Sequence record: OK272486.1
Length of the DNA stretch: 50,987 bases
From: Escherichia phage JLBYU10
Reading direction: 5' to 3' (one strand)
Both the position numbers and the translations under genes were made by a program. Numbering within the stretch: position 1 is the stretch's first letter; every line of letters begins with the position of its first letter. This document shows, one piece after another, positions 1,551-50,920 of the stretch. The notes under the pieces are model-generated. The model saw only the letters and a program-made list of their open reading frames with translations. It made no database searches and was not told the origin of the DNA.

Positions 1551-3548
1551 ATGATTCCAAATATCGAAAAACAAATATCAGCGTTAGGCGAGGCAGTAAT
1601 AAAAAGCATCCAAGAGCGATTCACGGTTGGCAATATAGTGCCTTATCCTTATCAGTGCGTTGCGTATGCCGAGATCGCAAAGCGCATGAAAAACTATGAG
1701 CATCCTTTCTTTGTTAAGGCTTCTGTGTCGGCTGGCAAAACATTGATGTTTGCGATGGTTGCGGCGCAATGCCGAAAAATGGGATTGAAAATGATGGTCC
1801 TTGCTCGCCAGGCTGAAATTGTTGATCAGGATTCGGAAGAGATCAGCAATCTTGGAGTGCCAAACTCAATCTATTGCGCCGGACTGAAAACAAAAAGCGC
1901 ATACTTTCCGATCGTGGTCGGTTCTGAGGGCACTGTAGTAAACGGATTGTTTAAGTCGTTAGGTGATTATGTTCCGCACGTTATCGGTATTGATGAATGT
2001 CACCAGGTGGATTGGGAGGATCTCGCGGACGCGATAGAAAATAATGAATCTTACCAGCAGATGACCACTAAGAAGGATTTGCCTGTACTGATTGGAGAAG
2101 AACAGCAATTTGATTCCAATGGCGATCCAATGTTCGGAACAGGGCGCACACAGTACACCGTAATAATCATGGAAATGATGCGCAGGTGTCGCGAGGCATA
2201 CGGGCACGAATTGCGAATATTCGGTATGACTGGATCTGAGTTTCGCGGCGTGGTTCCAATACTGGTTGAAGATAAGAACAAAAAGGGATTCTGGCGTGAG
2301 CAGGTGACTAACATAGACACAAACTACTTAATCAAATTTGGTTCGGTAGTGCCAACAAATTTCGGCGACGTAGGCGACCTGGGGTATGACCTTTCAGAGT
2401 TCGAAGCCAGTAGCGAGGATGGCGTTTCAGACTTTGACGCTAAAACATTGCGCAAGATGGAAGAAAAGATCCATCAAGACGCAACAATGACACAGAAAAT
2501 CATGGCTAAAGTCCATGAGATATGCAAAGACAGGAACGGAGTTTTAGTTACATGCGCAGGGGAAAGGCACTGCAATGAGGCCGCCGCCGCACTGCCGCCA
2601 GGCGTTGAATACAGGATCATAACTGGCAAGACTGGAGATAATCAGCGTAAAGAGTGGCTGAGGGAGGCATACGAGGGAAAAGTAAAATACATCTTCCAGG
2701 TACAGGCGCTTACCACTGGCGTTAACGTTCCGTTTTGGGATACTTCGGTAATACTGAGAAAGATAGGATCTCTAACATTGCTTATCCAGCTTTTGGGGCG
2801 CGGCATGCGACTGCTTAAGCAATGGCACATTGAGCAGGGATTCAAGAAAAAAGATCATCTTGTATTGGATTTTGCAGGTACTATGGATGAGTTAGGTGAT
2901 TTGTATTTCGATCCAATCCTTGAGCAAGCGCAATTTCAAAAGAGATTTACAAACGGGAAAGAGCCTAAGACTTGCCCGATATGTGGAACGCTAAACAGCT
3001 TTTACGCTCGCCGATGTATGCAAGTAGACGATAACGGGAAGCGATGTGAGCATTTTTGGACTTACAGAATTTGCGAGGACCAGGTAGATCCGAGAACGAA
3101 AAAGATAATCAAGCGCGGCTGCGGAACAAAAAACGACGTAGTGGCGAGAGTATGCCGTTGTTGCGATATTTCTCTTATCGATCCTAACGAGAAGTTAAGC
3201 GGTAAGCACTACACCAAAAACGATTGGTGCAACGTTAAATCTTTCCGCGTTGATATGACGAAAAACCAGAAAGGAATTATTTTTTGCTATGAGCTTGAGG
3301 CCAACGGCGACACGTTCAAGGCATACGAAAGATTTTTCCCTGAGTCAGAAAGCAACATTTGCCGGACGATATGGAGAAAAATAGCATTGCAGCACATACC
3401 GGATCGCAAGATTGCTGGTATGGTGGCGAGCTATAGAAATGCTCGTAAAATAATGTCATACGCTCATCACATCATGCCGCCTGTACGCGTAACGCATCGC
3501 AAAAACGGCAAAGGTGAGGATAACATTGCAAAACGGGAGTTTGTTTAA
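1551..3548 (+). CDS. SF2 DNA helicase with C-terminal Cys-rich zinc-binding region
   Basis: Walker A-like SAGKT, motif II IDECH, helicase C-terminal-like region, multiple CxxC near C-terminus. Confidence 0.65.
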   Translation: MIPNIEKQISALGEAVIKSIQERFTVGNIVPYPYQCVAYAEIAKRMKNYEHPFFVKASVSAGKTLMFAMVAAQCRKMGLKMMVLARQAEIVDQDSEEISNLGVPNSIYCAGLKTKSAYFPIVVGSEGTVVNGLFKSLGDYVPHVIGIDECHQVDWEDLADAIENNESYQQMTTKKDLPVLIGEEQQFDSNGDPMFGTGRTQYTVIIMEMMRRCREAYGHELRIFGMTGSEFRGVVPILVEDKNKKGFWREQVTNIDTNYLIKFGSVVPTNFGDVGDLGYDLSEFEASSEDGVSDFDAKTLRKMEEKIHQDATMTQKIMAKVHEICKDRNGVLVTCAGERHCNEAAAALPPGVEYRIITGKTGDNQRKEWLREAYEGKVKYIFQVQALTTGVNVPFWDTSVILRKIGSLTLLIQLLGRGMRLLKQWHIEQGFKKKDHLVLDFAGTMDELGDLYFDPILEQAQFQKRFTNGKEPKTCPICGTLNSFYARRCMQVDDNGKRCEHFWTYRICEDQVDPRTKKIIKRGCGTKNDVVARVCRCCDISLIDPNEKLSGKHYTKNDWCNVKSFRVDMTKNQKGIIFCYELEANGDTFKAYERFFPESESNICRTIWRKIALQHIPDRKIAGMVASYRNARKIMSYAHHIMPPVRVTHRKNGKGEDNIAKREFV

Positions 3549-3967
3549 TGGCTATAACTGATAAAGGAGATTATCTTGAGTTTTACGAAAGAGATCCAAC
3601 CGACACGAGAAAGGAAGTTAATCACCAGATAGATAGCTTTCAGTGGTTGACTTATGCTCATCCTTATTTGCTAGCGTGGCATACGGTAAACGAGAATGAG
3701 AAGTCGAAAGTAACGGCGATGATTGATCAGCAGTCCGGCTTGGTTAAGGGGGTAAGCGATTTCATCATCCTGATTGGTTCAAACGGAAAATACCCCTTTG
3801 CAGCGATTGAGATCAAACGAGTGAATAAATCAGGCAAGGGGAAAGCATCACCAGTCAGCGATGAACAAAAGGCTTTTTTGCGTCGCGTTCGCAGCTTAGG
3901 AGGATTCGCTGCGGTCGCCTACGGATTTAATCAGTTTAAGTTAGCTATTGAATACATGCTTAAATAG
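3548..3967 (+). CDS. VRR-NUC domain nuclease
   Basis: ATGA start-stop overlap with helicase; SDFIIL...AIEIKR...DEQKAF...GG.AAVAYG pattern typical of VRR-NUC. Confidence 0.6.
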   Translation: MAITDKGDYLEFYERDPTDTRKEVNHQIDSFQWLTYAHPYLLAWHTVNENEKSKVTAMIDQQSGLVKGVSDFIILIGSNGKYPFAAIEIKRVNKSGKGKASPVSDEQKAFLRRVRSLGGFAAVAYGFNQFKLAIEYMLK

Positions 3968-4007
3968 CACTTTTTGTTAAAACTGGCGCGATGGATTGCG
4001 CCATAAT
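3964..4007 (+). promoter_or_regulatory. Motif-type promoter-like unit: ATAGCACTTTTTGTTAAAAC, hairpin in 22-bp spacer, CATAAT
   Basis: Motif overlaps TAG stop of VRR-NUC gene; GGCGC..GCGCC stem in spacer; -10-like hexamer at fixed distance. Confidence 0.5.
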
Positions 4008-4020
4008 TCAATAACACGAG

Positions 4021-4773
4021 ATGGCTTTTAATAGCGGAGAAATGAAAATGGCTAAAGATATTTTAGATAAAGACACCCATGACGCATTTGTTAGCTTTGA
4101 GCAGTTGGAGAGAGAAACGTTTATAGGAAATGCTCTTGCAACTGGAGGCCATTACCAGGCAGTAAAGCCAAATCAATATTATAAGGTAAGCGGCAACCGA
4201 TACGCTGGAAGCACTACGCCGGACGTTGTGCGCGATATGTGGAGCACACCTCAAGAGATCGTGGAGTGGATGGAATCAGAATTTGGCGAATACGATCTCG
4301 ACGCGGCAGCAAGCCAGGAAAACGCAGTTTGCGAGAAGTTCTATAGCAAGGAAACAAACTGCTTAAAGAGTTGGTGGGGTAGCAACAAGCACGTATGGCT
4401 TAACCCGCCGTACAGCAACCCAACTCCATTTATCAAGAAAGCAATTGAGCAAATGGAGCACAACAACCAAATTGATGTTTTGTTGCCATCCGACAACTCT
4501 ACAGCATGGTTTTATGAGGCGCAGCAAAACGCGGCTGAAATCATCTGGATCACTGGCGAGGTTTACGAAGAGGGGGGAGTGGAATATTCCCGCACCGGAA
4601 GAATCGCCTTTGTGTCTGGATTGACTGGCGAGCCTGTACAGGGCAACAATAAGGGAAGCGTGATTTTTGTCATGCGCAAACTTAAAGAAGGCGAGGAGCA
4701 GAAAACGCGATACGTTAAGATCAGCGATATTTGCCCCTCTGTAAACGAACGCCGCGCGCGCAAACGGAGCTAA
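4021..4773 (+). CDS. DNA N6-adenine methyltransferase (Dam-like, NPPY motif)
   Basis: WLNPPYSNP catalytic motif; alternative start at 4045 has better RBS. Confidence 0.65.
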   Translation: MAFNSGEMKMAKDILDKDTHDAFVSFEQLERETFIGNALATGGHYQAVKPNQYYKVSGNRYAGSTTPDVVRDMWSTPQEIVEWMESEFGEYDLDAAASQENAVCEKFYSKETNCLKSWWGSNKHVWLNPPYSNPTPFIKKAIEQMEHNNQIDVLLPSDNSTAWFYEAQQNAAEIIWITGEVYEEGGVEYSRTGRIAFVSGLTGEPVQGNNKGSVIFVMRKLKEGEEQKTRYVKISDICPSVNERRARKRS

Positions 4774-4777
4774 CACG

Positions 4778-5035
4778 ATGAAAAAAGAGAGAAGCGTTTA
4801 TTTAAATGAAACTGGCGAGTGGTTGTTATTTCGCGCTATGGTGTGCGATGCACTTGATAAAAACCCTAACGTGAAAAAGATGATTGATTGCGATCCGTGG
4901 GAATTTTCAAGCGCATTAGATATGAGCTTTGATGAGACAAGAAAACTCCCTCTTGAAAAATGGCACGAACAAATCAGAAATGATATGCAAGAGTTTGTAG
5001 ATTCGTGGAATTTTCAGAACGGAATGATCCACTAA
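4778..5035 (+). CDS. hypothetical protein
   Basis: ORF track; ACGGAG RBS; tightly packed. Confidence 0.45.
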   Translation: MKKERSVYLNETGEWLLFRAMVCDALDKNPNVKKMIDCDPWEFSSALDMSFDETRKLPLEKWHEQIRNDMQEFVDSWNFQNGMIH

Positions 5036-26572: not shown

Positions 26573-27324
26573 TAGTGAAAGGCGTCGTTAAACAATGGCG
26601 CTTTCCTGAAGCAAGCGAGCGGCAATTGCGCCGCTCAATTCAGGAGGCGATAAGGGATCTTGTTGTGCTGATGCGCAGCAAAACAAAGGAAATGAAATTT
26701 GACGCGGACACCGAAGAAATCAACGCCGCAGAGGATGAGATTAGTAGCTTCGTGTTAAAGCTAATAGCTGGCATCGCCGCATCGCTTCCGGCTATCGGTC
26801 TTGCTGTTTATAAATTCAACGCGAAGCAATTTATTAACGTAGCCAAATCAACGGGAGGCAAGTCAAATTCCGCCGTTATCATCCTTATGGCTATTGGGGC
26901 CAATGCGAATGAGAGTTGGTATAGGACGCTATACGGTCAATGGCATGACATGACGATCGCATCTCTTCAAAAACTATTTGGAAACATCGTGTCTGACTGG
27001 TCAACCAATATTAGATTGGCAAACTTTCGCGGAATGAGAGATAGCCAGGTCAATGAATTGGCTGGTAAGAGATTTGCAGTGTATAGCTCTTGGGGTAAGA
27101 CCAGGGCGGAAAACATCATAGGCGCTTGGAATAGTAGACTCATGCGCCAGCGTCTGTATGATGCAAAAGTAACTCATTATTTTTGGCATGGTATGCTTGA
27201 TGACAGAGAGCGATTGCAGCATGTACAATGGGAAGGTAAGCGCATTGCGCTAGATTCTGAACATGATTTTCCTGGTGAGCCTTTCGGTTGTCGTTGTTGG
27301 GCCATACCAGATTGGAACAGTTAA
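26569..27324 (+). CDS. head morphogenesis protein (Mu F / SPP1 gp7-like)
   Basis: ORF track; position after portal. Confidence 0.45.
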   Translation: MIVKGVVKQWRFPEASERQLRRSIQEAIRDLVVLMRSKTKEMKFDADTEEINAAEDEISSFVLKLIAGIAASLPAIGLAVYKFNAKQFINVAKSTGGKSNSAVIILMAIGANANESWYRTLYGQWHDMTIASLQKLFGNIVSDWSTNIRLANFRGMRDSQVNELAGKRFAVYSSWGKTRAENIIGAWNSRLMRQRLYDAKVTHYFWHGMLDDRERLQHVQWEGKRIALDSEHDFPGEPFGCRCWAIPDWNS

Positions 27325-27334
27325 GAGGTGTTAA

Positions 27335-28450
27335 ATGAAGGCAAAACAAAGATTTGATAGCGCCAAAGTAAAGGCGCACTTTGATGATAACGGGTTTTTA
27401 GTTGATCGCCCTATCGTGGCGCGAATTGGTTTACAAGTCTATCAGACTCCTTTCGGTGAGCGCAGAGAATTTCGTCCGGCGTCCGAAGTATTCAAGGCCG
27501 ACTCGCTCGCCACCTTCGCAGGTAAGCCAGTCACGGTTGGTCACGTCACGGTAACGCCAGAAAACGCCGAAAAGGTTGTAGTTGGTTCTTGTGCTGGCGC
27601 TGGTGTGCCGAACGGGATCGGCGTAGAGGTTCCGTTAAGCATTTACTCAAAACGAGCAATCGAAAGCGCAAAGAAGCGAGACACGGCGGAAATTTCAGTT
27701 GGTTATACATCGGTTGATATTGATAAACCAGGCTGGGGCAATAATAAAACTGGTGAGTACGTTTTCGATGAGGACGTTAGCGAAGACTGGAAACCTGATT
27801 CTCCTGATTGGGTTAAGTTTGATGCAATCCAGACTGAAATCAAGGTAAACCACATCGCGTTAGTTTTCCGAGGTCGAGCTGGCATTGCAAAATTAAACCT
27901 TGATAGCCAGCAAGATTTTCCGTATAGTGACGACGTTATTAACAACAAAGAGGATCAAATCATGACTGTAAAAATTAAACTGGATGGCGCTGTAGAGTTT
28001 GACGTGCCGAAAGCGGTTGCGGATCACATTGAATCACTGAAAGCTGATGCCAAAGCGCAGAAAGAAAAGGCGGACGGCCTGGAAGCTGAGCGAGATGCAC
28101 TGCAAACCAAAGTAGATGGCATTCAGGATCAGATTGATGCCGCAGTCAAGAAAGCCAAAGAAGATGCCGCGCAACATGCTCAATTAGTGGCAGACGCTAA
28201 AGAGTTAGGCATCAAGTGCGACGGCCTGGATGCGAAAGCAATCAAGGTTGCATACATCAAGGAAGTTATGGGCAATGACGTTTCTGATAAAACTGATGCC
28301 TATATCGAAACAGCTTTCGACATCGCCAAAAACTCTGATAAAATGGCGGCGCAGCGTAAGAGCATTAAAGGTGACTCTTTCGCGAATGAAAAGCAGGATG
28401 ACGCAGGTTCTAAGCTGAATCCTAACGCTCGTTTTGAGAAACTGAAATAA
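27335..28450 (+). CDS. head scaffolding protein (coiled-coil C-terminal half)
   Basis: ORF track; Ala/Lys/Asp/Glu-rich helical C-terminus; before capsid genes. Confidence 0.45.
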   Translation: MKAKQRFDSAKVKAHFDDNGFLVDRPIVARIGLQVYQTPFGERREFRPASEVFKADSLATFAGKPVTVGHVTVTPENAEKVVVGSCAGAGVPNGIGVEVPLSIYSKRAIESAKKRDTAEISVGYTSVDIDKPGWGNNKTGEYVFDEDVSEDWKPDSPDWVKFDAIQTEIKVNHIALVFRGRAGIAKLNLDSQQDFPYSDDVINNKEDQIMTVKIKLDGAVEFDVPKAVADHIESLKADAKAQKEKADGLEAERDALQTKVDGIQDQIDAAVKKAKEDAAQHAQLVADAKELGIKCDGLDAKAIKVAYIKEVMGNDVSDKTDAYIETAFDIAKNSDKMAAQRKSIKGDSFANEKQDDAGSKLNPNARFEKLK

Positions 28451-28462
28451 GGAGTAATTAAA

Positions 28463-28972
28463 ATGGCTAAAATTGGAGCAAGTTATTTTGACACTATGGC
28501 GCGTGCGCTTCCTGGTCAGGTATCCGATACTTCGGCATATAACATCGACGGCGCTTGTGTTCTTGACAAGGAAGACGGCATCCCAATCCTGGTTGGCGTG
28601 GCTGTTAAGCTAAAAGGCGTTGACTCAATGGGTAATAAGCTGATCGACGCTATTTCTGGTAGTGGTGATGTTCCTTATGGCGTTGGCATCCGTTCGCACT
28701 TTCAAACTACGGCTGATAATGGACGAATGGTTTATGAGGCTGGCGGCGGAATCAACGTTATGACAGAGGGCCGCGTTTGGATGGTTGGCGATGATACCGA
28801 CAAGAGCAAAAAACCATCGTATCGTGATCCTGTAAAAATTGATGAAAACACTGGCAAGGTGAAAAGTGCTGGCACTATCAATACCAACTGGATTTACACG
28901 GGAGATAAAACCACATTTGGAACTGGCGATGATGTGTTGACTTTGTTTGAAGTTCAGGTCTTCCCAAGCTAA
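28463..28972 (+). CDS. capsid-associated protein, paralog 1
   Basis: ORF track; shares AYNIDG and VWMVGDD-like blocks with next ORF. Confidence 0.4.
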   Translation: MAKIGASYFDTMARALPGQVSDTSAYNIDGACVLDKEDGIPILVGVAVKLKGVDSMGNKLIDAISGSGDVPYGVGIRSHFQTTADNGRMVYEAGGGINVMTEGRVWMVGDDTDKSKKPSYRDPVKIDENTGKVKSAGTINTNWIYTGDKTTFGTGDDVLTLFEVQVFPS

Positions 28973-28976
28973 AATT

Positions 28977-29003
28977 AAGGCGCTCGCTTGAGCGCCTTTT
29001 TTA
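28977..29003 (+). terminator. rho-independent terminator
   Basis: GGCGCTC..GAGCGCC stem followed by T6. Confidence 0.55.
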
Positions 29004-29022
29004 TTATGTAAGGAGAAATGAA

Positions 29023-29805
29023 ATGGCTAAAGATTATTCATCTGTTATGGGTCTTTCTTGCCCTGGTTGTTTGGTTGATTCTACTCGCTACAATATTGAT
29101 GGAACTGGCGTTTGCGGATCTGAGTCGATCATTGCTGGCAAAGTTGTTTTCTTCAAAGAGAGAGCGGAAGGTTATAACATATTTGTTGATCATAAAGAGT
29201 ATGATGCTGTGGTTGCTGGCGTCGCGCTAAGGAGCAACATAACAACGACAGTTAACGAGGAAGACGGGTATTCAGACTACAAGGAAGGAGACGCCATCAA
29301 CATTTTGACAAGAGGTGTTGTATGGTGTGTAACTCAAACAATTGAATCTCCTCCTGAACATGGCGATCTTGTTTATGTTAACAATGATGGCTTTGTAGCA
29401 AAGAGTGACGGGGATGAAATCGTCGATGGCTGGATTTTTACTGGTGACTTCTACAAGTTTGATGAAACAATAAACATAGTAGGAGTAAGGATAACGCCGC
29501 TTCATCATAGAAAATACCTTCTTACTGGTGCGATAATTGAGGCTGAAAATGGCTACATAGAGGGAACAGAGACGGTTAATAACGTTCAATTAAAGGTAAC
29601 GGTTGTTCCTACTTGGGCTGATGACAAAACTGGTCAGTGGACAATTACAAACGAGCAAGATCCAAAGGTTGCCAGCGTTAGCCGTACAGGTCTTGTTGTT
29701 CCTACTGGTGTAGGAGGCAGAGTTAACGTCAACTGGACTGCTAATGATGGTTCTGGAGTTGCTGACCAGTTTGATATTGTATTTACGAGAACAGCTGGCG
29801 AATAG
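29023..29805 (+). CDS. capsid-associated protein, paralog 2
   Basis: ORF track; paralogous N-terminus to 28463..28972. Confidence 0.4.
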   Translation: MAKDYSSVMGLSCPGCLVDSTRYNIDGTGVCGSESIIAGKVVFFKERAEGYNIFVDHKEYDAVVAGVALRSNITTTVNEEDGYSDYKEGDAINILTRGVVWCVTQTIESPPEHGDLVYVNNDGFVAKSDGDEIVDGWIFTGDFYKFDETINIVGVRITPLHHRKYLLTGAIIEAENGYIEGTETVNNVQLKVTVVPTWADDKTGQWTITNEQDPKVASVSRTGLVVPTGVGGRVNVNWTANDGSGVADQFDIVFTRTAGE

Positions 29806-29829
29806 CTAATAGCATAAAAAAACATTGCA

Positions 29830-29848
29830 CGTTTAACAAAAAGTGCTA
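29830..29848 (-). repeat. motif copy in inverted orientation (GTTTAACAAAAAGTGCTAT) upstream of capsid gene
   Basis: Reverse complement of motif inside a rightward operon, next to a terminator. Confidence 0.45.
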
Positions 29849-29853
29849 TCATC

Positions 29854-29882
29854 TAGGCCGTTACATTTAACGGCCTTTTTTA
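29854..29882 (+). terminator. rho-independent terminator
   Basis: AGGCCGTT..AACGGCCT stem followed by T-run. Confidence 0.55.
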
Positions 29883-29895
29883 TGGAGGAAGCAAA

Positions 29896-30867
29896 ATGGC
29901 TAAAAAATATGATGAACTAGATGCTACGATTGTAGCGAATCATTTGCAGATTCAGGGTGTCAAGACCGACGCTTCTGATATGGGTATTTGGACCGCTCAA
30001 GAGCTACACAAGATCCGCTCTACCGCATACGAGAAAGAGTATCCGGCAGGTTCCGCGCTTCGCGTATTCCCCGTAACAAACGAGCTTTCTGATACTGACA
30101 AGACTTTCGAGTATCAGACTTTTGATAAGGTTGGCTACGCGAAAATTATCGCAGACTACACCGATGATCTGCCAACTGTGGACGCGCTGATGACTTCTGA
30201 GTTTGGCAAAGTGTTCCGCCTGGGTAACGCTTTCCTGATCTCAATTGACGAAATCAAAGCAGGTCAGCGAACTGGTAAAAGCCTTTCTACTCGCAAGGCT
30301 AACGCAGCGCAGAATGCACATGATCAGCTTATTAACTTCCTGGTTTTCAAAGGTTCCAAGCCTCATAAGATCGTTTCCGTTTTCGATCATCCAAACCTGA
30401 CTAAAATCACGTCAAAAGGATGGCTGAGTAACGACGGAAACACCAAGTTTCCAGAAGTTGCAAGCGATGAACTGGAGGCCGCAATCGAAACGATCGAGGA
30501 AGTAACAAAAGGCCAGCACCGCGCGACTAACATCCTGATCCCGCCGTCCATGCGCAAAGTCCTGACGGTTCGAATGGAAAATACCACTGAAAGTTATCTG
30601 GAATACTTCCAGAAGCAAAACGGCGGTATCACTATCGACTCTATCGCAGAGCTTGAGGATATTGACGGCAAAGGTACGAAAGGTTGCTTGGTTTACGAAA
30701 AAGATCCAATGAACATGAGCATTGAGATTCCAGAAGCGTTTAACATGCTTCCGGCGCAGCCAAAAGACCTTCACTTAAAGGTTCCTTGCACTTCCAAGTG
30801 TACTGGCCTTACGATTTACCGTCCGTTTACGATGGTGCTTATTACTGGCTTGAAAAAGTCAGCTTAA
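29896..30867 (+). CDS. major capsid protein
   Basis: 323 aa ORF with strong GGAGGAAGC RBS, flanked by terminators, downstream of scaffold. Confidence 0.65.
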   Translation: MAKKYDELDATIVANHLQIQGVKTDASDMGIWTAQELHKIRSTAYEKEYPAGSALRVFPVTNELSDTDKTFEYQTFDKVGYAKIIADYTDDLPTVDALMTSEFGKVFRLGNAFLISIDEIKAGQRTGKSLSTRKANAAQNAHDQLINFLVFKGSKPHKIVSVFDHPNLTKITSKGWLSNDGNTKFPEVASDELEAAIETIEEVTKGQHRATNILIPPSMRKVLTVRMENTTESYLEYFQKQNGGITIDSIAELEDIDGKGTKGCLVYEKDPMNMSIEIPEAFNMLPAQPKDLHLKVPCTSKCTGLTIYRPFTMVLITGLKKSA

Positions 30868-30877
30868 TTAGATAACA

Positions 30878-30907
30878 TGGGGAGCCTTAAGGGTTCCCCT
30901 TTTTTAT
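30878..30907 (+). terminator. rho-independent terminator after capsid gene
   Basis: GGGGAGCC..GGGTTCCCC stem followed by T-run. Confidence 0.6.
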
Positions 30908-30923
30908 TTATGGAGTACACAAA

Positions 30924-31190
30924 ATGAGCAAAACTTTAAAACTTAAAGTAACTGGCGTTTGCATGATTATTATGGACGGTAAGCGTTATCATCCTGGTGA
31001 TGAAATTGAAATTGAATCAGATCGCATTAATGATTCCGCAATTGAATACCTGATCGCTCGCGGCGATGTGGAAGTTAAAGACAATTCCGAAATTAACGAG
31101 CAAATCAAGGAGAAAGCGGAGAAGAAGCGCAAAAAAGATCCTACCGAGGGCAAGAGCCGCAAAGAGCTAGAGGATGGCGGCGAATATTAA
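30924..31190 (+). CDS. hypothetical head protein
   Basis: ORF track. Confidence 0.4.
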
Positions 31191-31195
31191 TAATT

Positions 31196-31214
31196 GGGGC
31201 GCTTATGCGCCCCT
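31196..31214 (+). terminator. hairpin GGGGCGC-TTAT-GCGCCCC (weak terminator/attenuator), part of repeated hairpin-RBS cassette
   Basis: Near-identical cassette at 47395..47435. Confidence 0.35.
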
Positions 31215-31236
31215 TGTCATATCTGGAGAAAACAAA

Positions 31237-31656
31237 ATGGTAGATGAATTTTATACAGACGCTGAAATCGTTCAGCAAATCGTAAAGTTGGCCCCACCAA
31301 TGCAGCAGGTTGATCCCGATTTAATTGTGGCATGGATTGAGCTTGCTAAAGAATTTGTTTGCAAAAAACGGTTTAAAAACTCATACCCTAAAGCGGTTGC
31401 GCTTTACACTCTTCACCTTATGACCTTAGACGGGGCAATGAAACAGGAAGGTGAAAGCGTAGAAAGCTATTCCCGCCGCGTTGCATCGTTCACTCTGACT
31501 GGTGAGTTTAGTCAGACGTTTGATCGAATTTCTTCCGATACAAGCGGAAAGCAGATCCGACAAACGCCGTGGGGCAAAATGTACGAAGTGTTAAACCGTA
31601 AGCACGGTGGCGGCTTTGGCCTTGTGACTGGATTGCGCCGGAGATGCTGCCGATGA
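31237..31656 (+). CDS. head-tail connector/adaptor protein (putative)
   Basis: ORF 31174..31656 trimmed to Met with GGAGAAAACAAA RBS; position. Confidence 0.4.
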
Positions 31657-48627: not shown

Positions 48628-48906
48628 TTAAGCCCATTCTCTAATCGGCTGATCTAACTCAACCACGTAGCCGTTAAAAATTACGGCATCAAACTTATCA
48701 TCAATGATTCGCACATTGACGAAATAGCCGTCGTTCTTTCGCGCAATCTCATCGCCATCGTCAGATCGTGCAATTACTGTGTAAGTATTGCCGATTACAT
48801 CGAGCAGGATTGCATCCTGAATGGATTCGTTTTCGTTCCATTCAATTTCTTCCAGAAAGGCGGAAAACTCCGCCTTGTCTAAAAATTTCAGTGTTAAATC
48901 ACGCAT
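48628..48906 (-). CDS. hypothetical protein (tail-fibre accessory?)
   Basis: ORF 48628..48951 trimmed to ATG overlapping stop of tail-fibre gene. Confidence 0.4.
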   Translation of the reverse strand: MRDLTLKFLDKAEFSAFLEEIEWNENESIQDAILLDVIGNTYTVIARSDDGDEIARKNDGYFVNVRIIDDKFDAVIFNGYVVELDQPIREWA

Positions 48907-50882
48907 TATACAATTTCCCCCAATTGATGATCTGTTAGTGCCTTGTGCCATATACGGAAGTTTCTAACGTGCCCGAAAAGATGGCGTTCGCCCGTAGTTG
49001 TTTGTCCGCCAATCCTTATAGTAGCCGTTGATTTTATGTATCTCCATTCCGTTTTTGTTTCGCTTGATATTCTGGCATTACTTACACAGCAATTATTGTA
49101 ATCACTCTTTACTCTCATTCCCATGATCATCTTTTTTAGTTTTGCATTCTCGTAAACCCTTCTTTTTGATCCACCTATATCGCAATAAGGGAATCCATCA
49201 TTATCTCCCTCGGCAGATCCGAAAGCAAGAATAATTGCCGCACCAGATTGATGACCTACAGTATCAAAAACACGAGGCGCAGCATTTGGCGTTATACTCC
49301 AGTTTTTATTAGCTTCCACAAGAACTGTAAACGGCAAATTGTAAAGGTTGTTTTTTATTGGCACTGTAACCATATCGCTTGCCCTTGTTACTGGATTTTC
49401 TTCTGTAATTATGAAAGAAGAGGCACAAGATCCTCCCTCAACTTGTGGAGTTGCAATATAAATGTAATCATCCGCGCCAGTGCCCACTCCTTTTGCCGGG
49501 GCATACTGAACCATTCCACCTATCATATTTTCTGTATCAAGTGCCTTAATTGTCGCCTCAAAAAAGATCCATTTGCTTGCTTCATCTTTAACAGCCCTTG
49601 CAGTAATACGATTTGCAGCGACGCCAGTTTTTTCAATTGATAAATCTGTCAGATTTACGTAAGCATCACCCAAAAATGCATAAGCAGATCCATCGTAGTT
49701 TTCAAATCGTAATCGGCATCTTAAATTTGGAGTCCCACTTTGCGCCCTGCATGATATGGTTACATACTTTTCATTTCCTGTTACATCAAAACCTCTACTG
49801 CCGGAAACGGTTACTATGTTAATCTCTGAAATTTGCCCTACCATTTCTGGTTTTAATGTAAATTTTGCGTACTGGAATCCGAAATTATCCACACCTGATC
49901 TATCTAAGATCATATTTGATGACTTGTTCCATTTTGAAGGATTGACGCTATTTATAAGAAGGTTTGTTCTTTGCCCCTCAATGAGCAGACCATCCTTTTC
50001 AAATCTAGGTTCATCAATAGCAGCATTAGTAAGCACCCCAGACTTATTAATGTAAGTAGCGGTTGATGCGCGTTTAAACTTAACAATCTTGTCACCTGGC
50101 ATCGTGATCTCATCGTCACCTATAACAATCTTTTTATATGACGGAGAGAATCCGGTGATCATATCCAGGGAATCATTAAACGGTATCCACACGTCCGGCA
50201 ACGGTTGCAATAAATCTTTGTAAGGTTCTGCGGCCTGCTTTGCGTATTCCTCCGCTTGATCTCGCGCACTTTCAGCTCCTGCCTTTGCAGTGTTCGCAGC
50301 GTCACGCGCGGATTCAGCGCCTTTTCTTGCAGTTTCAGCGCCAGTCTTTGCAGTGTTTGCAGCGTCGCGCGCGGATTCAGCGGCAGCCTTTGCAGTGTCA
50401 GCACCTTTCTTGCTATTCTCTGCATTTGTTGCGCTTGTCTTTGCGTTATTCTCGCTAGTTTTAGCTGCCTTCTGGCTTGCTGCGGCTGCGTCAGCATTTG
50501 TCTTTACGTCTTCCTGGATCTTCTGTAGCTTATCCCAATCAAAATCCTTGATGATCTCAATAAATCCAGCAAGCTCCGACTCCTTTCCCTGGTAATAACG
50601 CAACGTTTCCGCTACGTCTTGCGCAAGACCGTCAACCGTTAACGAGTCATGAAGCAAGATCAGGTAATTTGTCTTCTGGACTACCGCGCCGCCAGTAGTA
50701 ATTGCGCGAATGCTTGTATCGCTAATCACTTCCGTAATCACAGCAGCTTGCAAAGGTTGAGCAAGAAAGAAAATAGTTGCACCTGGGCGAATCAAGGTTA
50801 ATTGCTCACGCCATTTTGTACCGTAACCAGTTACATAACCTTGCGCGTCCATAGACGCTTGGCCTTGTCTGTAAATCGCCAT
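48906..50882 (-). CDS. side tail fibre protein
   Basis: ORF 48906..50906 trimmed to ATG with AGGAGGA RBS; Ala-rich repeats AAESARDAANTAKTGAETARKGAESARDAANTAKAGAESARD typical of fibre shafts. Confidence 0.55.
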   Translation of the reverse strand: MAIYRQGQASMDAQGYVTGYGTKWREQLTLIRPGATIFFLAQPLQAAVITEVISDTSIRAITTGGAVVQKTNYLILLHDSLTVDGLAQDVAETLRYYQGKESELAGFIEIIKDFDWDKLQKIQEDVKTNADAAAASQKAAKTSENNAKTSATNAENSKKGADTAKAAAESARDAANTAKTGAETARKGAESARDAANTAKAGAESARDQAEEYAKQAAEPYKDLLQPLPDVWIPFNDSLDMITGFSPSYKKIVIGDDEITMPGDKIVKFKRASTATYINKSGVLTNAAIDEPRFEKDGLLIEGQRTNLLINSVNPSKWNKSSNMILDRSGVDNFGFQYAKFTLKPEMVGQISEINIVTVSGSRGFDVTGNEKYVTISCRAQSGTPNLRCRLRFENYDGSAYAFLGDAYVNLTDLSIEKTGVAANRITARAVKDEASKWIFFEATIKALDTENMIGGMVQYAPAKGVGTGADDYIYIATPQVEGGSCASSFIITEENPVTRASDMVTVPIKNNLYNLPFTVLVEANKNWSITPNAAPRVFDTVGHQSGAAIILAFGSAEGDNDGFPYCDIGGSKRRVYENAKLKKMIMGMRVKSDYNNCCVSNARISSETKTEWRYIKSTATIRIGGQTTTGERHLFGHVRNFRIWHKALTDHQLGEIV

Positions 50883-50899
50883 TTGTAAAATCCTCCTAA

Positions 50900-50920
50900 A
50901 TAGCACTTTTTGCTAATGAC
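50900..50920 (+). repeat. motif copy (ATAGCACTTTTTGCTAATGAC) upstream of, and inverted relative to, the tail-fibre gene
   Basis: No -10 at canonical spacing on plus strand; adjacent to RBS of minus-strand gene. Confidence 0.4.

Follow-up and report, generated by a model that had tools for sequence, protein, structure and literature searches.

A pair of related genes between the prohead protease and major capsid protein genes

The genome sequence of Escherichia phage JLBYU10 (OK272486.1; 50,987 nucleotides, the whole of which is referred to here as the window) carries two adjacent open reading frames (ORFs), genes A and B, between the genes for the prohead protease/scaffold and the major capsid protein (MCP). 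The analysis presented here indicates, with a probability of about 0.8, that A and B encode the two cement proteins of a T1-like siphophage, and that they follow phage T1 in trimer type, stoichiometry and placement of the minor protein around the vertices, with an adhesive immunoglobulin (Ig)-like domain on B and a dose of B set by transcriptional read-through. The genes and their parts are as follows.

28450..28454, + strand: ribosome-binding site of gene A, AGGAG, read from the sequence; it overlaps the protease stop codon
28463..28972, + strand: gene A (ORF A), 169 residues, capsid cement (decoration) protein with a predicted beta-tulip fold
29010..29015, + strand: ribosome-binding site of gene B, AAGGAG, read from the sequence
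29023..29805, + strand: gene B (ORF B), 260 residues, predicted beta-tulip domain, linker and Big_2 Ig-like domain
29023..29502, + strand: N-terminal, putatively capsid-binding beta-tulip domain of gene B, residues 1-160, paralogous to A
29503..29805, + strand: linker and C-terminal Big_2 Ig-like domain of gene B, residues 161-260; the Pfam match to residues 186-246 corresponds to nucleotides 29578-29760

The original prediction had given exactly these coordinates for the two ORFs. It had also proposed a strong ribosome-binding site before each gene, and an AGGAG-type site is indeed found before both; its placement of the pair between scaffold and major capsid genes is borne out by the DUF2213 prohead protease/scaffold gene upstream and the MCP gene downstream.

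A and B are true paralogs. BLASTP aligned full-length A to the first 159 residues of B, with 32% identity over 171 residues and E=4e-15, and the Smith-Waterman score of the pair was 156, as compared with 36 +/- 6.3 (maximum 77) in 1000 shuffles (z=18.9). The homology that had been proposed from shared sequence blocks thus survives proper alignment, although one of the blocks requires rewording. The motifs are AYNIDGACV and RVWMV in A, and RYNIDGTGV and VVWCV in B, such that VW.V is common to both as had been claimed, but the form YNIDG.GV fits B only, and the shared pattern is YNIDG..V. That the resemblance might instead be a chance or compositional match between unrelated proteins has a single point in its favor, the modest identity of 32%. 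In addition to the alignment and shuffle statistics, it is contradicted by the fact that A and B independently reach the same Pfam family, the same PHROG family and the same solved structures (see below), and with BLASTP, the shuffle test and Pfam all refuting it, its probability is close to nil. A tblastn search of the window detected no cement-fold copy other than A and B, nor any second copy of the Ig domain of B; in sequence, this domain shows no detectable similarity to the tail-tube protein.

Both proteins match known capsid cement proteins

Both proteins score far above the 27-bit gathering cut-off of Pfam family PF22758 (Phage_cement, the family of E217 gp24 and Pam3 gp6): A with 86.6 bits (2.3e-24), and B with 78.9 bits (5.5e-22) over residues 4-147. 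Both also match PF23982 (XM1 gp53), and both are contained in PHROG 1989. The additional length of B is accounted for by a Big_2 Ig-like domain, recognized by Pfam at residues 186-246 (4.8e-06; 26.9 bits against a cut-off of 22.8).

In a sequence search of the PDB, A matched the 158-residue "decoration protein / cement protein II" of entries 9KMG, 9KMH and 9KZJ with E=1.8e-37 and approximately 50% identity, while B matched the 255-residue "BIG2 domain-containing protein / decoration protein gp29" of 9KZJ and 9KMH with E=6.5e-15 over residues 10-245. Entry 9KZJ is the capsid of phage T1, and 9KMG and 9KMH are the capsid and the portal vertex of FCWL1, respectively. By this evidence A is the major capsid cement protein and the ortholog of T1 gp49, and its beta-tulip fold is predicted from the approximately 50% identity to the solved gp49 chain. 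The Ig domain of B aligns with the C-terminus of T1 gp48 (42% over 60 residues, E=9e-10), and the alignments identify both domains of B as homologous to those of gp48.

The fold of B was further addressed by structure prediction. A single-sequence AlphaFold2 model was unusable, with a predicted local distance difference test score (pLDDT) of 33, and was superseded by a model built on an alignment of 74 A- and B-type sequences. The latter has a mean pLDDT of 85, and comprises a beta-rich N-terminal domain (approximately residues 11-160), a linker of lower confidence, and strands over residues 169-254. Its top Foldseek matches in the PDB are the FCWL1 and T1 cement chains, with E-values of 3e-11 to 8e-10 and target-normalized template-modeling (TM) scores of 0.76-0.83, followed by the cement proteins of XM1 (7kmx_a), Pam3 (8hdt_G) and Borrelia BB1. 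The C-terminal domain matches Big_2-CBM56 and phage tail-tube proteins (T5 pb6 and lambda gpV). In the alignment of 74 sequences, the core residues of the beta-tulip fold are invariant.

The idea that a decoration protein was duplicated, and that one copy is a longer variant, is thus well founded, since both proteins belong to the Phage_cement family, both have homologs in the T1 and FCWL1 capsids, and the extra length is the Big_2 domain. Virion proteomics had been proposed as a check on whether both are structural; for the T1 counterparts the answer is already available, as both are present in the virion (PMC11945409). What the original prediction did not anticipate is that the paralogs of T1 co-assemble into heterotrimers instead of each decorating the shell independently, nor that this had been published in 2025.

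Distribution and history of the gene pair

A tandem cement pair between the protease and MCP genes was found in six genera, with the following product lengths.

Tunavirus: first gene 158 residues, second gene 255 residues
Warwickvirus: first gene 169 residues, second gene 260 residues
Changchunvirus: first gene 162 residues, second gene 269 residues
Hanrivervirus: first gene 170 residues, second gene 144 residues
Tlsvirus: first gene 159 residues, second gene 146 residues
Jhansiroadvirus: first gene 173 residues, second gene 138 residues

In the three genera with a second gene of 138-146 residues, the Ig domain is absent but the second beta-tulip paralog is kept, which speaks for an independent structural role of this paralog and for an accessory role of the Ig domain. 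Webervirus possesses a single cement gene; only about 110 nucleotides separate it from the MCP gene, and no second, diverged paralog was found there. The PDB matches of the Webervirus cement protein are limited to the T1 and FCWL1 cement chains and one marginal, unrelated lipoprotein, so that no solved capsid was found from a family member with a single cement protein.

In a neighbor-joining tree, the first-gene proteins of the six genera group together with 100% bootstrap support, and the second-gene proteins of five genera make up a clade with 72% support. T1 gp48 falls outside the latter, a placement that is itself weakly supported. T1 gp49 and the gp48 N-terminal domain (locus positions 1933-2409 versus 2471-2929) are far closer to one another than either is to the corresponding paralog in other genera. 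This pattern in T1 suggests either that gene conversion acted on the tandem pair in Tunavirus, with A converting B after one old duplication, or that the duplications were independent. The duplication history is the main caveat on transferring the heterotrimer geometry of T1 to other genera.

A proposed arrangement of A and B on the capsid

The structure of phage T1, solved by cryo-electron microscopy, reveals a T=7 shell of 415 copies of the MCP gp47 (Chen et al., Viruses 2025, PMC11945409). This shell is cemented by 80 gp49 homotrimers and by 60 gp48:gp49₂ heterotrimers at quasi-threefold sites, and both gp49 and the N-terminal domain of gp48 adopt the beta-tulip fold (PMC11945409). The trimer counts amount to 360 gp49 and 60 gp48 subunits per head, a ratio of 6:1, and the chain counts in the PDB agree, with seven MCP chains and one BIG2 chain in 9KZJ. 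Two of the six trimers around a T1 hexon are heterotrimers (Figure 2 legend of PMC11945409), and the FCWL1 portal-vertex model 9KMH contains five chains of the 255-residue long protein. Residues 154-255 of gp48 gave rise to weak, protruding density that was modeled with AlphaFold3, and the authors suggest that they aid adsorption (PMC11945409).

Virion location and stoichiometry can be carried over to this Warwickvirus by homology with T1. A and B would accordingly form beta-tulip trimers at the threefold and quasi-threefold junctions between the capsomers of a T=7 shell of the HK97 fold, where each trimer would clamp three capsomers together after expansion. A, like gp49, would be the bulk subunit, with about 360 copies making up 80 homotrimers and contributing two subunits to each of another 60 trimers. 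B, like gp48, would be the minor subunit, with about 60 copies, one per asymmetric unit, occupying the third position in the 60 heterotrimers. The counts of two heterotrimers among the six trimers around a hexon, and of five long-protein chains in the FCWL1 portal-vertex model, lead us to infer that these heterotrimers occupy a ring of five junctions around every one of the 12 vertices. The Ig-like domain of B would protrude from the capsid on its flexible linker, and it probably provides weak, non-essential adhesion to glycans of the cell surface or the environment, a weak-adhesion role that was also proposed for gp48 by the T1 authors (PMC11945409).

Alternatively, B could be a virion cement protein that forms homotrimers of its own at a subset of sites, for example at the 20 strict icosahedral threefold axes. 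One B per asymmetric unit, or 60 copies, is numerically compatible with 20 homotrimers, and because A and B share only 32% identity, as compared with 43% between gp48 and gp49, a mixed interface is less assured here than in T1. Against this, the T1 authors built 60 trimers of one gp48 and two gp49 subunits at quasi-threefold sites alongside the 80 homotrimers (PMC11945409), and the five long-protein copies in the FCWL1 model fit a fivefold ring rather than threefold axes. Homotrimers of B are therefore considered unlikely.

Several observations nonetheless weigh against a direct transfer of the T1 arrangement with mixed trimers. The N-terminal domains of B and gp48 share just 26% identity (E=3e-9), gp48 is closer to its own gp49 (43%, E=5e-34) than to B, and the tree places gp48, with weak support, apart from the second-gene proteins of the remaining genera. 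Given this low identity, the closeness of gp48 to gp49 and the tree position, strict orthology of B and gp48, and hence the transfer of the heterotrimer geometry, is not proven. Location and geometry derive from T1 and not from this genus, and adhesion by the Ig domain is only a proposal in T1-like phages. Finally, the read-through dosing described below is deduced from sequence alone, and the ratio could instead be governed by the efficiency of translation or the stability of the mRNA.

Gene B as a mosaic hot spot

A comparison of the window with SECphi27 and ityhuna, two phages of the same genus, shows that nucleotide identity falls within gene B (window positions 29023-29805, compared with locus positions 1801-2589 in SECphi27 and 1801-2674 in ityhuna).

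Protease segment: 98-99% nucleotide identity
A segment: 99% nucleotide identity
B N-terminal half: 79-80% nucleotide identity
B C-terminal half: 50-53% nucleotide identity
MCP segment: 93-95% nucleotide identity

Similarly, among protein relatives the N-terminal domain can be 96-99% identical while the Ig domain is 74-78% identical. The GC content at third codon positions is 0.34 in B, as compared with 0.43 in A and 0.50 in the MCP gene. In ityhuna, B is frameshifted just before the Ig core, which leaves an annotated product of 198 residues with the remainder readable in the next frame; the frameshift may reflect a genuine truncation or an error in sequencing. B from BEBK14 (locus 1801-2643) carries an in-frame tandem duplication of 60 nucleotides (20 residues), with GVCGSESIIAGKVVFFKERV present twice, inside the beta-tulip domain. 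Such comparisons mark B, and especially its Ig half, as a mosaic hot spot within Warwickvirus.

These same features could be taken to mean that B is a decaying or dispensable duplicate of no significant structural importance in this phage, either expressed in trace amounts or assisting only in assembly and missing from the mature head. B varies more than any other head-module gene, at 50-80% nucleotide identity where its flanks reach 93-99%; it is truncated in ityhuna and internally duplicated in BEBK14, its GC content at third positions is below that of its neighbors, it lies behind a strong terminator, the Ig domain is missing from three genera, and Webervirus lacks the second gene entirely. 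Yet an intact B-type ORF with a ribosome-binding site is retained in the same slot in six genera, and genera without the Ig domain still retain the N-domain paralog. Moreover, the invariance of the beta-tulip core extends across the A- and B-type sequences alike, and the T1 and FCWL1 homologs of B occupy defined sites in the virion. Decay or absence from the mature head is thus very improbable.

The loss of the Ig domain in some genera, the single gene of Webervirus, the mosaicism of B and its terminator-bounded slot may be of interest for the engineering of T1-like phages, whether for display or for altered adhesion. The Ig domain resembles a non-essential, naturally exchangeable site for display, available at about 60 positions that would ring the vertices.

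Terminators around gene B and its possible dosage

Three elements flanking gene B bear on its expression.

28977..29006, + strand: intrinsic terminator between A and B; 9-bp, GC-rich hairpin (28977-28998) and T-run; folding free energy (dG) -16.2 kcal/mol, z=-3.8
29825..29852, + strand: promoter-like element before the MCP gene; TTGCAC, 16-nucleotide spacer and TATCAT, with a TGn extended -10 (TGC); includes one copy of a family-wide 19-nucleotide repeat
29855..29884, + strand: second hairpin (29855-29876) and T-run; dG -13.5 kcal/mol, z=-3.3; precedes the MCP ribosome-binding site and closes the B slot on its 3' side

The first of these substantiates the terminator that had been proposed between the two genes. 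A hairpin and T-run follow A in all six two-gene genera, with differing stem sequences, and the whole A-B intergenic segment folds with a dG of -13 to -20 across these genera. The distance from the hairpin to the start of B is only 10-25 nucleotides, including the ribosome-binding site, which leaves B without room for a promoter of its own. A weak promoter-like match in the 3' end of A (28947-28975, 9/12) was rejected as a promoter for B, as its -35 element consists of the conserved VEV codons, its -10 element takes in the stop codon, and the match lacks conservation across the other genera.

The promoter-like element is located only after B. It is near-identical in T1, aalborv, PaulSarasin, SP126 and Vc1, and weaker in Webervirus, where the layout is A, terminator, promoter and MCP, with no second hairpin. 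In all six two-gene genera a hairpin follows this element, clearly better than shuffles in five and weak in aalborv, and it starts 1-3 nucleotides after the -10 element. An Rfam scan of positions 27000-31500 returned only sub-threshold matches, to RyhB and the Trp leader, which scored about 22 bits where 41-55 are required for gathering; at this chance level, the hairpins do not correspond to known RNA families.

With no promoter of its own and a slot between two terminators, B would have to be transcribed across the terminator of A. Read-through of that terminator would give B a lower dose than A, and such a slot fits the 1:6 ratio of B-type to A-type protein in the T1 virion. The promoter before the MCP gene may speculatively be envisaged to start transcripts inside the 5' arm of the second hairpin, which could then escape termination there. 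The second hairpin could thus terminate only transcripts from upstream, or it could form a stabilizing 5' stem-loop.

A more extended proposal can be formulated, in which B occupies an insulated, low-expression slot where read-through sets the dose of about 1:6 for the vertex-ring heterotrimers, the slot serves as a recombination cassette in which the vertex-displayed Ig adhesion module is swapped, truncated or lost among phages that are nearly identical elsewhere, and the MCP promoter starts inside the second hairpin. In this complete form it is put forward tentatively, and is more doubtful than probable. Nor is terminator-flanked transcription a new idea for this group, as the late region of T1 is described in terms of "transcriptons" flanked by terminators in work cited in a passage of PMC11447400.

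The 19-nucleotide repeat within the promoter-like element, TTTTAACAAAAAGTGCTAT, occurs at 19 sites in the window at up to two mismatches, as compared with 0.23 expected. These include 29831-29849 and, for example, positions 3964, 11115, 13805, 14311, 15615, 16961, 20987, 25206, 33583 and 50900. TTTTAACAAAAAGTGCTAT is the reverse complement of the 21-nucleotide direct repeat aaATAGCACnnnTTGnTAAAA of phage TLS, the function of which is unknown (PMC11447400). In most copies, ATAGCAC..TAAAA runs the same way as the neighboring genes. The opposite orientation is seen before the MCP gene (29831), before ORF 33616 (33583), and before the minus-strand ORFs 48906-50906 (50900) and 987-1463 (1475); these copies lie 11-46 nucleotides before the start codon, and their GTGCTATnnn resembles an extended -10 element.

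Relatives, neighboring genes and annotation

The phage is a T1-like siphophage of the genus Warwickvirus (Drexlerviridae, Tempevirinae). Its 3.5-kb head module is 97.7% identical to that of Escherichia phage vB_EcoS_XY3, and 95-97% identical to those of tunus, JK16, FritzSarasin and others. The genes flanking the pair are as follows.

27335..28450, + strand: prohead protease/scaffold gene (DUF2213); Pfam DUF2213 6.9e-25, PHROG 530 (head maturation protease) 6e-110
29896..30867, + strand: MCP gene, HK97 fold; Pfam Major_capside 1.3e-52, PDB 9kmg_A/9kzj_A with E of about 1e-156

The protease gene and A probably share one transcript, and the MCP is the predicted platform to which A and B bind. 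Directly after the MCP gene, a small, conserved ORF (30924-31190) encodes 88 residues with a Lys/Glu-rich C-terminus, and matches Pfam DUF7444 (3e-36) and PHROG 2716, a group of unknown function; all of the T1-like loci inspected have a small ORF annotated there.

In GenBank, T1-like genomes systematically mislabel the cement genes. Public names for A include "putative zonula occludens toxin", "HtjA", "beta-galactosidase" and "capsid decoration protein"; those for B are "putative scaffolding protein" and "hypothetical protein". Renaming the pair as the major and the minor (Ig-bearing) capsid cement proteins would be of value for annotation. In some T1-like records the protease gene is itself named "major capsid protein".

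Two further sets of records attracted attention. Nineteen "Campylobacter phage" records (host Campylobacter jejuni; for example A14a, A127 and C4; approximately 47-50 kb) contain the T1-like head module of Enterobacteriaceae phages, and their host label looks doubtful. In Enterobacter phage N5822, a circular record of 78 kb in a family of approximately 50 kb, the cement/MCP region (locus positions 2597-4788) is split into many short ORFs, which suggests assembly or sequencing problems.

Comparison with known systems

Hoc of phage T4, an Ig-like capsid display protein, is a monomer that sits at the centers of hexamers and is composed only of Ig-like domains. Like Hoc, B would present an Ig-like domain at the capsid surface, one that relatives can do without; here, however, the domain is fused to a paralog of the cement protein and would be confined to about 60 sites.

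A different set of parallels concerns the trimers themselves. The herpesvirus triplex (Tri1:Tri2₂) is a 1:2 heterotrimer, and thus embodies the same stoichiometric idea as gp48:gp49₂. The T1 authors compared their cement proteins with this triplex and with lambda gpD, TW1 gp56 and P74-26 gp87, all of which are trimeric beta-tulip clamps at capsomer junctions (PMC11945409). No sequence similarity to these four was detected, and none of them appeared among the 50 best Foldseek matches of the B model. Neither A nor B had a Pfam or PDB sequence match to gpD, with which, following the T1 authors, only the broad beta-tulip class is shared (PMC11945409). The capsid of the Shigella siphophage Sf11 was set aside as a comparison, since it is of a different kind, with a cleaved MCP of 356 residues and a TW1-like decoration protein.

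E217 and Pam3 also possess trimeric beta-tulip cement proteins on threefold and quasi-threefold axes, and the fold predicted for B matches those of Pam3 and XM1. Unlike the present phage and T1, which encode two paralogs that in T1 form mixed trimers, E217 and Pam3 are each reported to have a single cement protein that forms homotrimers (180 and 140, respectively).

The closest systems are T1 (gp49 of 158 residues, gp48 of 255 residues) and FCWL1. They belong to the same family and share the gene order of protease, short cement protein, long cement protein and MCP, and their long protein likewise combines a beta-tulip and a Big_2 domain, both detectably homologous to those of B. They differ in that T1 belongs to the Tunavirinae rather than the Tempevirinae, and in that the capsids of T1 and FCWL1 have been solved while the present genus is known from sequence. 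A literature search for cryo-electron microscopy of capsid decoration under the family name Drexlerviridae yielded nothing. As the function of the pair is already apparent from the capsid structures of T1 and FCWL1 (2025), the discovery value of the present observation is small: it is real, but the biology of two cement proteins that explains it has already been published for T1, the type phage of the family.

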